From IMG/VR virus record IMGVR_UViG_2531839149_000016: DNA of 26,648 nt. One strand, written 5' to 3'. The notes beneath the pieces are model-generated. The model worked only from the letters and a program-made list of their open reading frames with translations. It had not been told where the DNA came from and searched no databases. The stretch is from a virus (lineage: Duplodnaviria; Heunggongvirae; Uroviricota; Caudoviricetes). Below are positions 7,458-14,306 of the stretch, in pieces; the first letter of the stretch is position 1; every line of letters starts with the position of its first letter. Both the position numbers and the translations under genes were made by a program.

Positions 7458-8285
7458 TTAAACTTGGGGAAGTATTTTTTTTGCAAAATCAATAGTTTCT
7501 TTGTGGTTGGATGCAGGTATATGATTTATTTTCTTAGCATCCATAGTTCTCTTTATGATGTCAATAACTTTGCTTTGGCCTGAGTTTGGTGATTCAGGAG
7601 TTTCAATTGTGAATAAAATGTCATCAAGTGAAAGCAGGTTTTCTTCTGCTGCTCGAGTTATTCTCATCACCCAAGTATCACTATGCTCCATCATTTTTCC
7701 TGGTTCAGCTTGAGTGAATGCCAGAGGTTTGATGGCACATTGGATCCTGTCATGCTTCTTGGCGACCAATGGCATTGAGAACTTTGCGAAATACCCATCA
7801 ATGGTTGCTTGTTTGAAGACGTTCTTCAATCCATCTATTCTATCGATACTTCGTTTTAGCTCTCTGGCTAGAACATCTTCACGGCGCTCTTTTGTGTAGT
7901 CAGAGTGGTTTACATATTTATTGTAAATGCGGGCCAGCTCTTCTTTTGGGTTTTCGCTGAGAATCACTCTCGTAGAACTGAACTGAAAAATTGATTCTTT
8001 TTTGTTTGTAAAATATCTGAAGAATTGTGCAAGTTGTTGATGTCCAACAATCTGGGTCGCATGCATTTTTGCGAACTGTAGTTCTCTTTGTATTGAGTCT
8101 TTTGCTACAGGGAAAATACAATCATCATGGAAAAAATTCTTTACACGAGAGTCATTTCGCTTTGTGAGCTGGAAATCAAAGTAATTTTCTTTTGGCGCGC
8201 ACAGAAGTACGCCTATGTTTGCGAATTCTTCAGTCTCCGCATAAGGCGCATAGCGAACGATGCTATATAGGCATGGAGTTGTCAT
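7458..8285 (-). CDS. DUF3037-family protein
   Basis: ORF starting MTTPCLYSIVRYAPYAETEEFANIGVLL…, the characteristic N-terminal signature of DUF3037 proteins as I recall it; its ATG overlaps the upstream gene's stop (ATGA), implying translational coupling; the track ORF extends to 8300 from a non-ATG start. Confidence 0.75.
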   Translation of the reverse strand: MTTPCLYSIVRYAPYAETEEFANIGVLLCAPKENYFDFQLTKRNDSRVKNFFHDDCIFPVAKDSIQRELQFAKMHATQIVGHQQLAQFFRYFTNKKESIFQFSSTRVILSENPKEELARIYNKYVNHSDYTKERREDVLARELKRSIDRIDGLKNVFKQATIDGYFAKFSMPLVAKKHDRIQCAIKPLAFTQAEPGKMMEHSDTWVMRITRAAEENLLSLDDILFTIETPESPNSGQSKVIDIIKRTMDAKKINHIPASNHKETIDFAKKILPQV

Positions 8286-9031
8286 TCTATTGCGCTCCAA
8301 AATTCATCACAATCACCTTTGTCTAGCGTAGTGCAGACAAAAGGTAAAAACTCCTCATCTACTATCCACTCTTCTGGAATTTCGTCAAGGATAGCAGGAA
8401 GCTTGTGTAAACTGTTAACGACCCTCTGGCGGTACTCTACGCGATCCACTAAATCATATTGCCATTTGCGGTTACCAGGGCCGTACACGTGCACAGAAAA
8501 ATCTTCAGGTCCAGCATTCTGATCAAATGAGAGATTATGGTCAATCAGATAATACTTATCGTTACTGATGTCATAAAGGATGTTAACGTTTCCACCTTTG
8601 TCAGTAAGCGTTCTGTCTGCATTTAATATCCATTTATCAAAAACATAGATTAATTTTTGCTGTTCGACTGGGATGATCGTTTCGTTTCTTGACTGCGTAA
8701 ACGTTAACGCTATTGCACCGTCAATGAACAATGAAGCAAAGGCATATCCTGTACAAATTTGTTGCTGCAGATCAGGTGAGTACTCTATAAGTTCCTCTGG
8801 CACAAATACGATTTTAAAGTCAGGTAAAGGAAGGCCGATATCATTAGCCAAACACGCCGAAATGAACTCAGCTAAGAGATTTTTCGGGGGCATTGATGGT
8901 TTTGACTTCAAAACATACAACTGCCCATCATCACATTTGCAAAGAAATGGCTGAGTGGAACCTTCATTGATGCGACGTATTACTTCAACGACATTAGGTA
9001 TTGCACTATTGCTGCTCGCTACGCACTCCAT
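8282..9031 (-). CDS. Small HipA-like / protein-kinase-like-fold protein (putative Ser/Thr kinase)
   Basis: About 250 aa; kinase-like motifs readable in the translation: beta3-Lys (YVLKSK), catalytic-loop-like ILNADRTLTDKGGNVNIL (D…N), and a DFG-like LIDHNLSF; AAGGG RBS 6 nt upstream of the ATG at 9031. Confidence 0.65.
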   Translation of the reverse strand: MECVASSNSAIPNVVEVIRRINEGSTQPFLCKCDDGQLYVLKSKPSMPPKNLLAEFISACLANDIGLPLPDFKIVFVPEELIEYSPDLQQQICTGYAFASLFIDGAIALTFTQSRNETIIPVEQQKLIYVFDKWILNADRTLTDKGGNVNILYDISNDKYYLIDHNLSFDQNAGPEDFSVHVYGPGNRKWQYDLVDRVEYRQRVVNSLHKLPAILDEIPEEWIVDEEFLPFVCTTLDKGDCDEFWSAIE

Positions 9032-9153
9032 CACTAACCCTTATGTGATTCAAGTCTTCCATCTCATTACTCCGCATCTCAAAGAGCGGTTTAACACTGC
9101 GTGTTTAAAGAAAAACAACAGGCCTATTGCTGTAACTGTTTTTTAGCCTCACT

Positions 9154-9947: not shown

Positions 9948-10178
9948 ATGAACCCAGCTATCAAAACAGCGATCAATATCGTTGGTTCACAAAAGAAACT
10001 GGGCGCTGCTTGCGAAGTTTCACAGCAGGCCGTCTATAAGTGGCTTCACAACAAAGCAAAGGTATCCCCTGAACATGTCGGCAGCATTGTTACGGCTACT
10101 GGTGGAGTAGTGAAGGCATACCAGATTCGCCCGGATCTTCCGAAGTTGTTTCCACACACCGAAAAGAACGCAGCTTAA
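9948..10178 (+). CDS. cro: Cro-like HTH regulator (YdaS/Cro family)
   Basis: 76-aa ORF divergent from cI, with an HTH (KKLGAACEVSQQAVYKWLHNK). Confidence 0.8.
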   Translation: MNPAIKTAINIVGSQKKLGAACEVSQQAVYKWLHNKAKVSPEHVGSIVTATGGVVKAYQIRPDLPKLFPHTEKNAA

Positions 10179-10247
10179 ATTTCCATTTCACGCTCTTTAA
10201 CAATAAGCAATCAACTTAACAGTCAATTCAAACTAAAGGAGTCAATT

Positions 10248-10787
10248 ATGCAACCACTTACATACCAACAGACTAGCGGATTTAGCCCGACTGCGGTGAT
10301 AAATCGTTCTCAAACAAAACAGGTGCCAGGCCACGAAAAAATCCGTGATGCCGTCCGCGCCTGGTCGGCTGAAGATAATCAGGATGTCGTTGCCACACTC
10401 ATTGTGAATGAGTATCGGGAGCAGGGCGGCGGCACTATCGATTTCCCTGATGATGTCAGCCGTGCACGCCAGAAGCTGTTCCGCTTCCTCGATAACAAAT
10501 TCGATTCTGAAAAATACCGAAATAACGTGCGTGAACTGACCCCGGCAATTCTGGCGGTACTACCGCTGGAATATCGCGGTTACCTGGTTGAGCAGGATAG
10601 CTTCATGGCTAGGTTGGCTGAAATGGAAAAGGAACTCAGTGAGGCAAAACAGGCTGTCATTCTCAACGCACCACGCCACCAGAAACTGAAGGAAATTAGT
10701 GAAGGTATTGTGTCGATGTTTCGTGTGGACCCAGATCTGGCTGGTCCATTGATGGCGATGGTTACTACCATGCTGGGGGCGATATGA
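10248..10787 (+). CDS. YdaT-family protein (occupies the cII position)
   Basis: 179-aa ORF; segments EYREQGGG and LTPAILAVLPLEYRGYL resemble Rac YdaT as I recall it; directly downstream of cro with an AAAGGAG RBS. Confidence 0.6.
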   Translation: MQPLTYQQTSGFSPTAVINRSQTKQVPGHEKIRDAVRAWSAEDNQDVVATLIVNEYREQGGGTIDFPDDVSRARQKLFRFLDNKFDSEKYRNNVRELTPAILAVLPLEYRGYLVEQDSFMARLAEMEKELSEAKQAVILNAPRHQKLKEISEGIVSMFRVDPDLAGPLMAMVTTMLGAI

Positions 10788-10873
10788 CAGGTTCAGAAAT
10801 GGCGAAAGCCGGTCTGCTGGAACAGAACCGACTTTCAGGTGCAAATCGTAACACACTCATTGCGGGAGGAATT

Positions 10874-11362
10874 ATGGCAAACACTGCTGAGATATTCAAT
10901 TTTCCAGTGCCGGATGCGGCACAAAAGGAGCCGCGCGTGGCAGATCTCGATGATGGTTATACGCGCATTGCAAATGAGTTGCTGGAAGCTGTAATGCTGG
11001 CCGGATTAACACAGCACCAGCTTCTGGTCTTTCTGGCTGTCATGCGCAAAACATATGGCTTTAATAAAAAACTGGATTGGGTTAGCAACGAGCAACTTTC
11101 CGAATTAACCGGGATATTGCCGCACAAGTGTTCTGCTGCAAAAAGTGTTCTGGTAAAGCGTGGGATTTTTATTCAGAGCGGGCGGAATATCGGCATCAAT
11201 AATGTGGTCAGTGAATGGTCAACATTACCCGAATCGGGTAAGAAAAATAAAGTTTACCTGAAAGAGGTAAATTTACCTGAATCAGGTAAGAAAAGTTTAC
11301 CTAAATCAGGTAAAGGCGTTTACCCGAATCAGGTAAACACAAAAGACAAACTAACAAGGTAA
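10874..11362 (+). CDS. O: Replication initiator O, N-terminal iteron-binding domain (lambda O-like); terminated by an in-frame TAA
   Basis: MANTAEIFNFPVPDAAQKEPRVADLDDGYTRIANELLEA… aligns with the lambda O N-terminus (…NVADLDDGYARLSNMLLEA…); GGGAGGA RBS upstream; the coding region contains the iterons. Confidence 0.8.
   Translation: MANTAEIFNFPVPDAAQKEPRVADLDDGYTRIANELLEAVMLAGLTQHQLLVFLAVMRKTYGFNKKLDWVSNEQLSELTGILPHKCSAAKSVLVKRGIFIQSGRNIGINNVVSEWSTLPESGKKNKVYLKEVNLPESGKKSLPKSGKGVYPNQVNTKDKLTR
11225..11336. repeat. ori: Origin of replication iterons: five near-palindromic repeats of about 17 bp, consensus TTACCTGAATCAGGTAA
   Basis: Repeats at about 11225, 11255, 11273, 11297 and 11320, inside the O gene and followed by an AT-rich stretch, the same architecture as lambda ori. 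Confidence 0.75.
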
Positions 11363-11383
11363 TGCTGCCAACTTACTGATTTA

Positions 11384-11824
11384 GTGTATGATGGTGATTT
11401 TAAGGTGCTTGCGTGGCTTCCATTTCCATCAGATGTCCTTCCTGCTCCGCTACTGAAAGCGGATGCTGCGATTCAGAACGGCAGCAAGTGGGGGACAGCA
11501 GAAGACCTGACCGCCGCAGAGTGGATGTTTGACATGGTGAAGACCATCGCGCCATCAGCCAGAAAACCGAATTTTGCAGGGTGGGCTAACGATATCCGTC
11601 TGATGCGTGAACGTGATGGACGTAACCACCGCGACATGTGTGTACTGTTCCGCTGGGCCTGCCAGGACAACTTCTGGTCCGGTAACGTGCTGAGTCCGGC
11701 CAAACTCCGCGACAAGTGGACCCAGCTCGAAATCAACCGAAACAAGCAACAGGCTGGCGTGACAGCCGGCAAACCAAAACTCGACCTGACGAACACTGAC
11801 TGGATTTACGGGGTGGATTTATGA
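11384..11824 (+). pseudogene. O: Replication protein O, C-terminal (P-interacting) portion, same frame as the N-terminal part but separated from it by a TAA at 11360-11362
   Basis: ORF ends …TNTDWIYGVDL with an ATGA overlap onto P, as the lambda O C-terminus does; it has only a GTG start and no RBS of its own; in-frame with the upstream O ORF. Confidence 0.6.
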
Positions 11825-12522
11825 AAAACATCGCCGCACAGATGGTTAACTTTGACCGTGAGCAGATGTGCCGGATCGCCAATAACATGCCGGAACAGTA
11901 CGACGAAAAGCCGCAGGTACAGCAGGTAGCGCAGATAATCAACGGTGTATTCAGCCAGTTACTGGCAACTTTCCCAGCGAGCCTGGCTAACCGGGACCAG
12001 AACGAACTGAACGAAATCCGCCGCCAGTGGGTGCTGGCTTTTCGGGAAAACGGGATCACCACAATGGAACAGGTTAACGCTGGAATGCGCGTAGCCCGTC
12101 GGCAGAATCGACCATTCCTGCCATCACCCGGGCAGTTTGTTGCATGGTGCCGGGAAGAAGCATCCGTTATCGCCGGACTGCCAAACGTCAGCGAGCTGGT
12201 TGATATGGTTTACGAGTATTGCCGGAAGCGAGGCCTGTATCCGGATGCGGAGTCTTATCCGTGGAAATCAAACGCGCACTACTGGCTGGTTACCAACCTG
12301 TATCAGAACATGCGGGCCAATGCGCTTACTGATGCGGAATTACGCCGTAAGGCCGCAGATGAGCTTGTCCATATGACTGCGAGAATTAACCGTGGTGAGG
12401 CGATCCCTGAACCAGTAAAACAACTTCCTGTCATGGGCGGTAGACCTCTAAATCGTGCACAGGCTCTGGCGAAGATTGCAGAAATCAAAGCTAAGTTCGG
12501 ACTGAAAGGAGCCAGTGTATGA
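11821..12522 (+). CDS. P: Lambda replication protein P (DnaB helicase loader)
   Basis: 233-aa ORF near-identical to lambda P (MKNIAAQMVNFDREQM…KFGLKGASV). Confidence 0.97.
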   Translation: MKNIAAQMVNFDREQMCRIANNMPEQYDEKPQVQQVAQIINGVFSQLLATFPASLANRDQNELNEIRRQWVLAFRENGITTMEQVNAGMRVARRQNRPFLPSPGQFVAWCREEASVIAGLPNVSELVDMVYEYCRKRGLYPDAESYPWKSNAHYWLVTNLYQNMRANALTDAELRRKAADELVHMTARINRGEAIPEPVKQLPVMGGRPLNRAQALAKIAEIKAKFGLKGASV

Positions 12523-13296: not shown

Positions 13297-13857
13297 ATGA
13301 AGAAGATAATATTATTAGCCATGATTATTGGTTCTTTAACAGGTTGCGCTAGTGTGCCACCATTGAATTTTTCAACACCTAACGTGGGAGTTAGCCAGAA
13401 AAAAATAGATGCTGAAATTAAGTCATTAACGGTATCACTTGCTCGTCCAGATGAGCAGAAAGGGGATATCACTGCTGGTATGGAGGCTATAACTCCAATT
13501 TGGCGTGAATCTTTGCAGGAAGCACTCGACCGAATGACTATTTTTCGTGATAGTTCACCAAATACGGTTAGCTTAAATGTTAAAGTGTTGGCTCTTGACG
13601 TTCCTGCTTTTGGTGTTTCAATGACAACTAAAGCAATTGCAAGGTATGAAATAATCAACCGTGCGAATGGTGATATTATATATACGCAGGATATTGAGTC
13701 TACCGGTACTGTTCCAGCCAGTTACGCATTCTACGGTATTGTTCGAGCACGCGAATCTGTTAATCGCGCGGTGCAAAACAACATAACGCAGTTCTTGCAA
13801 GCATTAGAAAGTGTTGATCTTTCTCGTCCAATGTTTCCTGTTAGGGTAGCTAAATGA
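13297..13857 (+). CDS. Hypothetical lipoprotein
   Basis: Signal peptide with lipobox (MKKIILLAMIIGSLTGC); 186 aa; stop overlaps the start of the next lipoprotein gene (ATGA). Confidence 0.7.
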   Translation: MKKIILLAMIIGSLTGCASVPPLNFSTPNVGVSQKKIDAEIKSLTVSLARPDEQKGDITAGMEAITPIWRESLQEALDRMTIFRDSSPNTVSLNVKVLALDVPAFGVSMTTKAIARYEIINRANGDIIYTQDIESTGTVPASYAFYGIVRARESVNRAVQNNITQFLQALESVDLSRPMFPVRVAK

Positions 13858-14306
13858 AGCGATTATTCGTAATTGCTCCACTCTTAGTGTTGGTTGGATG
13901 CGCACAAAATATATCGCCAAATAGTTATTCTGTTGGCTCTGTGGGCATGGTTAATCGAACTATCGCTGGTACAGTTATTAGTGCCAGGGGGGTTGATATC
14001 AGTGGGACTTCCGCGTTAGGCGGGACTGCTGGGGCTGCCGTGGGGGCAACCGCTGGTTCTGCGCTTGGTGGGGGAGTTCGTTCTAATATCGTTGGTGCCG
14101 TTGGTGGTGCAGTCATTGGTGGTATTGCCGGGGCAGCAATCGAATCTTCAGCAACAAAACAAACAGGCATGGAATATGTTGTCGAAACTGAGAATGGGAA
14201 TTTAATGACCATTGTTCAAGGCAAAGATCCGTTATTTACTCAAGGAAGTAAGGTCCTTGTTTTATACGGAAACCCTTCTCGCATAATAACAGACCCGCGT
14301 CACTAA
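13854..14306 (+). CDS. Glycine-zipper lipoprotein (SlyB/Pcp-like, 17-kDa-antigen-type)
   Basis: Lipobox (LLVLVGC) followed by a Gly/Ala-rich segment (GGTAGAAVGATAGSALGGG…GAVGGAVIGGIAGAAI) typical of glycine-zipper outer-membrane lipoproteins. Confidence 0.7.
   Translation: MKRLFVIAPLLVLVGCAQNISPNSYSVGSVGMVNRTIAGTVISARGVDISGTSALGGTAGAAVGATAGSALGGGVRSNIVGAVGGAVIGGIAGAAIESSATKQTGMEYVVETENGNLMTIVQGKDPLFTQGSKVLVLYGNPSRIITDPRH

Follow-up and report, generated by a model that had tools for sequence, protein, structure and literature searches.

The C-terminal domain of the phage λ replication initiator O is the P-binding part of the protein and recruits P-DnaB. The origin, oriλ (39034-39160), consists of four iterons and a 38-bp segment of high A+T content, whose strand separation is suggested to provide single-stranded DNA for the loading of DnaB (PMC3349717). 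The mobile element IS1F is 768 bp long and has terminal repeats of about 30 bp as well as insA and insAB' reading frames with a programmed -1 frameshift. In IS1, insA begins at +56 of the element (PMC12428005).

Here we analysed the O gene and origin of a lambdoid prophage in a 26,648-nucleotide stretch of DNA (IMG/VR virus record IMGVR_UViG_2531839149_000016), which is referred to as the window. Like λ O/oriλ the locus has a Phage_rep_O domain, iterons within the gene, an A+T-rich segment, and a near-identical C-terminal part and P. It differs from λ in that its N-terminal domain and iterons are of another specificity type, with five iterons instead of four, and in that its frame is interrupted while the right half of the A+T-rich segment is deleted together with linker codons.

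Organization of the split O gene and its origin

The replication genes and origin elements of the window are as follows:

10874-11362, plus strand: O', the truncated O gene, 162 codons and a stop (Pfam PF04492 Phage_rep_O, E=2e-34; GenBank product EMU71482.1)
11225-11337: five intact origin iterons of the TTACC-YRAANNR-GGTAA type, with regular-expression matches starting at 11225, 11253, 11272, 11296 and 11319, which align with the λ ITN1-4 region
11338-11357: left 20 bp of the A+T-rich segment of the origin, still present and equivalent to about 39120-39139 of λ in the alignment with λ and intact O
11458-11824, plus strand: 3' part of O coding for the λ-type C-terminal domain, 122 codons with no start of their own, aligned with λ O
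11821-12522, plus strand: intact λ-type P gene (Pfam PF06992, E=5e-62)

Both the winged-helix origin-binding domain and the segment encoded by the iterons lie in O'. An in-frame ATG at 10784, upstream of 10874, extends it to a mechanical ORF of 192 amino acids (10784-11362); the alignment of O' with λ O starts at 10874, and the ATG at this position is preceded by the Shine-Dalgarno sequence GGGAGG. Translation of 10874-11824 yields exactly one stop, the TAA at 11360-11362, and together with the Phage_rep_O match confirms the original prediction that two O reading frames (10874-11362 and 11384-11824) lie in the same frame and are split by a single TAA. Its description of the downstream ORF as starting with a GTG without a ribosome-binding site is correct as well, as no Shine-Dalgarno sequence precedes the GTG at 11384. 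The first 24 codons of this ORF, including the GTG, are IS1F sequence, and its predicted product comprises 146 amino acids.

Protein identity to λ amounts to 48.7% for the N-terminal domain of O, 97.5% (119/122) for its C-terminal part and 98.7% (230/233) for P, bearing out the proposed distinction between a non-λ N-terminal domain and a λ-type C-terminal domain and P. The λ-type C-terminal domain (11458-11824), although very widespread in lambdoid phages, matches no Pfam-A family at E<=0.01. The five iterons could likewise be confirmed, the last one ending at 11337, shortly before the stop.

At the DNA level, λ-type identity starts at ACACAAAAGACA, right after the last iteron (about 11337) and 20 bp before the break. 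This N/C mosaic boundary is real and a normal property of intact O genes. Isolated phages (PhiR30_1, 4A7, 1W, Perceval and others) contain the same O type without interruption and with about 97% identity over all 1,020 bp, and some other phages match O only from position about 541-554 onward. Since all intact homologues, including isolated phages, have the joint in an uninterrupted O, the joint is not the cause of the break. Thus, of the earlier proposal that the stop sits at or near a mosaic joint, the position stands, the joint being located about 20 bp upstream, but the joint is not what made the stop.

An IS1F end in place of 78 bp of O

The TAA codon that splits O is the tip of a 100-base leftover of IS1F and not a point mutation. 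The comparison with intact alleles, i.e. those of E. coli AR437 and YD786, which carry the same prophage with an intact O (930/1020 bp), and those of isolated lambdoid phages, allowed us to place both junctions to the exact base. Outside the scar the window and YD786 differ by 26 mismatches over about 23.5 kb. The elements of the scar are:

11358-11457, plus strand: IS1F nt 1-100, 100/100 bases identical to annotated IS1F, replacing 78 bp of O
11360-11362, plus strand: TAA stop, nt 3-5 of IS1F in the terminal repeat GGTAATG
11365-11392: promoter-like site in the IS1F end
11413-11532, plus strand: insA' stub, beginning with the GTG at IS1F nt 56 and 15 InsA codons and running out of frame into O, 39 codons and then a stop
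11454-11457: TGAA microhomology at the right IS1F/O junction, common to IS1F nt 97-100 and O, with 7/8 bases shared over TGAA-R-GCG in the ungapped three-way registration

On the left, the window departs from intact O right after ...CAAACTAACAA (11357); on the right, intact O resumes at TGAA (11454-11457), followed by AGCGGATGC. Compared with the intact alleles, 99 bp of IS1F stand in for 78 bp of O, so that 26 O codons are exchanged for 33 IS1F-derived codons. The two O pieces are still in frame because the net change is +21 bp, and this shared frame is a one-in-three coincidence due to chance. In λ coordinates the break follows the equivalent of 39139 and the missing DNA runs to that of 39214, which means that the right half of the unwinding segment and 26 linker codons have been removed. 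In the window the O gene thus holds the five iterons together with only 20 bp of the A+T-rich segment, and the frame from the N-terminal domain to the P-interacting C-terminal domain ends at the TAA.

The fragment shows the features expected of an IS1 end, namely the left terminal inverted repeat (GGTRATG), the adjacent promoter-like site overlapping this repeat, and the start of insA with its first 15 codons. It is also 100% identical to the IS1F copy of a prophage remnant in AR437 (see below), and 11358-11461 matches IS1F-type elements at 99%. While the window shares nt 1-100 exactly with IS1F, it retains only 13% of the complete element. A full 768-bp IS1 with a right terminal repeat is absent, as blastn of the full IS1 against the window matched only 11358-11461; transposase coding capacity (insA/insAB') is absent from the window except for the 15 insA codons; and no 9-bp target-site duplication is present in the window, where the right flank is deleted. 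What is left is an immobile solo-end scar, a lone IS1 end being incapable of transposing. A blastn search found no second IS1 piece anywhere in the window, and hence neither a local inversion nor a second copy explains the fragment.

When 10784-11900 was compared with complete E. coli genomes by megablast, about 76,000 matches were returned with a median of 10 per genome, indicating that part of this query is a repeated element. One record contains an IS1 transposase annotated within the match; in the others the match consists of two parts and spans 21 bp less than the query does. Two ORFs of 427 amino acids at the window ends were considered as repeated or IS genes and rejected, since they are unrelated, the left one corresponding to ybhC as annotated in YD786 and the right one lying in the ydfJ transporter region.

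If O were otherwise intact, a substitution creating a nonsense codon at 11360-11362, or an error in base calling there, would account for a single stop between the two ORFs. However, IS1F sequence makes up 99 bp surrounding and following the stop, and O lacks 78 bp. The registration against IS1F and intact O therefore refutes a point mutation and leaves this explanation with practically no probability. The doubt raised previously about a single codon or its sequencing can be dropped, as can the assumption that O is continuous apart from the TAA. O is indeed continuous in the intact homologues, the comparison that had been suggested, but the difference is a stretch of IS1F for 78 bp of O and not one codon. 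Neither the resequencing of one codon nor a search for readthrough is warranted, and the main value of the analysis lies in this correction: the mobile-element scar gives the impression of a clean in-frame nonsense codon or of an exotic split initiator.

In E. coli AH21C062 (L001:3575-4342) another IS1 isoform, in opposite orientation, occupies exactly this base in the same O type. The isoform shows 90% identity over the first 104 nt, and its insertion is flanked by the 9-bp duplication AACTAACAA and is unique among 5,426 genomes. Together with the IS1F event, this makes two hits by IS1, independent of each other, at a single position within the A+T-rich segment of the origin. IS1 has struck the unwinding segment of a lambdoid origin no fewer than two times at the same base.

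A second lambdoid remnant with the same junction

The exact O/IS1F left junction (100% over 11258-11457) is present in 194 complete E. coli genomes at another chromosomal site. In AR437 this copy (4.27 Mb) is part of a second, heavily decayed lambdoid remnant with the order IS100, xis, DGQHR protein gene, exo, partial bet and cro, YdaT gene, O', complete 768-bp IS1F and unrelated DNA, and RefSeq lists it as an incomplete 'replication protein' beside an 'IS1 family transposase'. The remnant and the window are identical in the left junction and the flanking variants (100% over 200 bp). In the remnant, however, IS1F is full length and followed by unrelated DNA, whereas in the window 100 nt of the element are followed by the 3' part of O, P and ren. 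In the remnant of AR437 (L011:6869-7100) the IS1F has no target duplication, and its right flank contains a partial recombinase gene, genes for an AAA ATPase and McrC, an icd fragment and iraM. The missing duplication and the unrelated right flank indicate that the remnant was itself cut at IS1F, perhaps by an IS1-mediated deletion or by IS1-IS1 recombination.

In related genomes the O 5' copies of the attλ prophage and of the remnant are 98.4% identical, and a three-way SNP map of the window, the attλ prophage and the remnant distinguishes the two alleles. From 10580 to 10993 the window has the attλ-prophage allele at 18/18 sites that differ from the remnant, and from 11032 to 11319, up to the IS1F junction, it has the remnant allele at 11/11 informative sites. 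The SNP map thus delimits one further feature:

11032-11457: patch with remnant alleles, a putative gene-conversion tract, left limit between 10994 and 11031

As the variants beside the junction are all of the remnant type and those further left are of the attλ type, the paralogous remnant was probably the source from which the patch was copied into the attλ prophage and, given the scar, a single conversion event is the reading we favour. In this event about 330-360 bp of remnant O 5' sequence together with IS1F nt 1-100 would have been transferred non-reciprocally, with a homologous crossover on the left (10994-11031) and an illegitimate join at TGAA on the right. Ectopic gene conversion and homology-facilitated illegitimate recombination are known to act between co-resident lambdoid prophages. 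The patch resembles their products, as one of its ends lies in homologous sequence and a 4-bp microhomology marks the other; in contrast to the known process, the event is deduced here from sequence only, and the donor is a putative resident of the same genome. The remnant-type variants could also have come by a separate, earlier conversion.

A history within the attλ prophage was our first model and was downgraded after the paralogous donor and the allele mosaic had emerged. It is conceivable, albeit clearly less probable than the transfer from the remnant, that IS1F transposed into O of this prophage and that a spontaneous deletion of about 751 bp between TGAA repeats followed. That deletion would have removed 74 bp of O along with the 9-bp duplication and nt 101-768 of IS1F. 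The geometry of the junction fits this history equally well, and the history retains some probability because the site is a demonstrable IS1 target, hit at the same base by the AH21C062 isoform with the duplication AACTAACAA. However, it needs the same isoform, base and orientation as in a paralogous remnant of the same lineage, as well as an unrelated conversion for the 11/11 remnant-type variants abutting the junction, and a full IS1F in the attλ copy is seen in no complete genome. Megablast detected no window allele in complete E. coli genomes, the best coverage (95%) coming from the AH21C062 type.

Only one assembly, GCA_000354595.1, was found to carry the deletion allele. Its draft contig AQCM01000019.1 shows no difference from the window over 6,579 bp and has the only junction-specific 146-aa ORF on record; the product is named as one of E. 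coli MP021552.12. An exact scan for the right junction CTCCGCTACTGAAAGCGGATGCTGCGATTC gave no hit in species-representative genomes and JGI metagenome contigs. Occurring in a single contig of a draft assembly, the TGAA right junction is without independent sequence confirmation. The source being a draft, a chimeric short-read contig that wandered between the near-identical O 5' regions might be suspected, all the more as the right junction is unique to one record and the right end of the window is also joined to a distant locus. We consider such an assembly artefact very unlikely, as the join between IS1F nt 100 and O extends over 4 bp (7/8), far less than any assembler overlap or k-mer, and as three contigs of other samples independently have hybrid attλ/remnant alleles running into IS1F.

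These three contigs, from metagenome or read assemblies (L006, L007 and L008), share the left junction and end inside IS1F. Compared with 10035-11357 of the window, each has its own mix of attλ and remnant variants, the switch being located at 11107-11191 in L007 and at 10932-10993 in L008, while L006 is patchy. Judging by these variants, the two paralogous O regions seem to have undergone gene conversion repeatedly in the lineage. Paralogous prophage remnants would exchange sequence in this E. coli lineage, a process that can bring a partial IS into an intact gene.

Functional consequences and further observations in the window

Taken together, the O gene of the window is very probably an IS1-scarred pseudogene with a damaged origin inside it, in an attλ prophage that was already defective. 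The pseudogene proposed in the original prediction is thereby supported and had even been understated, since the cis-acting origin is damaged in addition to the gene. The architecture of the locus suggests that O and origin function are both lost. O' would still have its iteron-binding domain but no λ-type C-terminal domain to recruit P-DnaB, the origin would retain five iterons but half of its A+T-rich unwinding segment, and the 3' part of O would be promoterless, devoid of a ribosome-binding site and without a credible start. P is intact as a gene, yet its translation may suffer because its start overlaps the stop of O (ATGA). The prophage copies in relatives with intact O already lack head and tail genes, and the scar therefore takes the decay of this cryptic element one step further.

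The other possibility raised at the outset was that the N- and C-terminal domains of O are expressed as two polypeptides that cooperate with P. In its favour, the two pieces share a frame, both the C-terminal part and P are undamaged and resemble those of λ, and the IS1 end contributes a promoter-like site. On the other hand, the downstream start is a GTG without ribosome-binding site that is supplied by IS1F, half of the A+T-rich origin segment is missing, and the allele with its right junction occurs in one assembly, in contrast to a continuous O in more than 2,000 genomes and in isolated phages. In addition, no C-terminal part of O follows this stop in its widespread copy: in none of the 194 genomes is there a downstream O part that could have a proper start and ribosome-binding site. 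Separate expression of the domains thus finds no support, and we regard a functional split initiator as extremely improbable.

There is also a slim chance that O' is retained because it is useful: once expressed, it might block iterons of its own specificity type and thereby keep the defective resident prophage from replicating, which would avert replicative killing, or do the same to superinfecting phages that share this origin type. In that case, and with as little probability, gene conversion would spread an 'origin-silencing' allele between prophages. The presence of the O' stump in 194 complete genomes and the recurrence of hybrid alleles are compatible with such a role and do not demonstrate it.

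With regard to annotation, a single O pseudogene should be entered with the two fragments 10874-11362 and 11458-11824, 11358-11457 should be labelled as a partial IS1F, and the prophage should be scored as replication-defective both in trans (O) and in cis (the origin). Lesions of this kind are well known, and at the sister locus RefSeq already gives the replication protein as incomplete, with an IS1 transposase beside it.

Three further regions of the window were noted. The segment 23606-26648 belongs to the cryptic ybhC-side prophage until 23642, and from 23643 onward to the neighbourhood of the ydfJ transporter gene with tail-fibre and 'pyocin knob' genes, which is located about 0.9 Mb away in related complete genomes. 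The breakpoint at about 23606-23642 reflects either a rearrangement of prophage remnants via tail-fibre-assembly homology (an 88% block at 23474-23606) or a misjoin in the draft.

On the minus strand, 7458-9034 encodes a HipA_2-type kinase (250 amino acids) and a DUF3037 protein (280 amino acids) as a two-gene cassette beside the repressor gene, on the side away from cro. The cassette matches both components of the PADLOC candidate defence system PDC-M66 (A, E=6e-15; B, E=4e-16). On the plus strand, two overlapping ORFs of 186 and 150 amino acids (13297-14306), hypothetical in RefSeq and without a PADLOC match, lie between ren and ybcN. The first one starts with a lipoprotein-like signal and the second is rich in Gly and Ala, and the pair may be a moron cassette.
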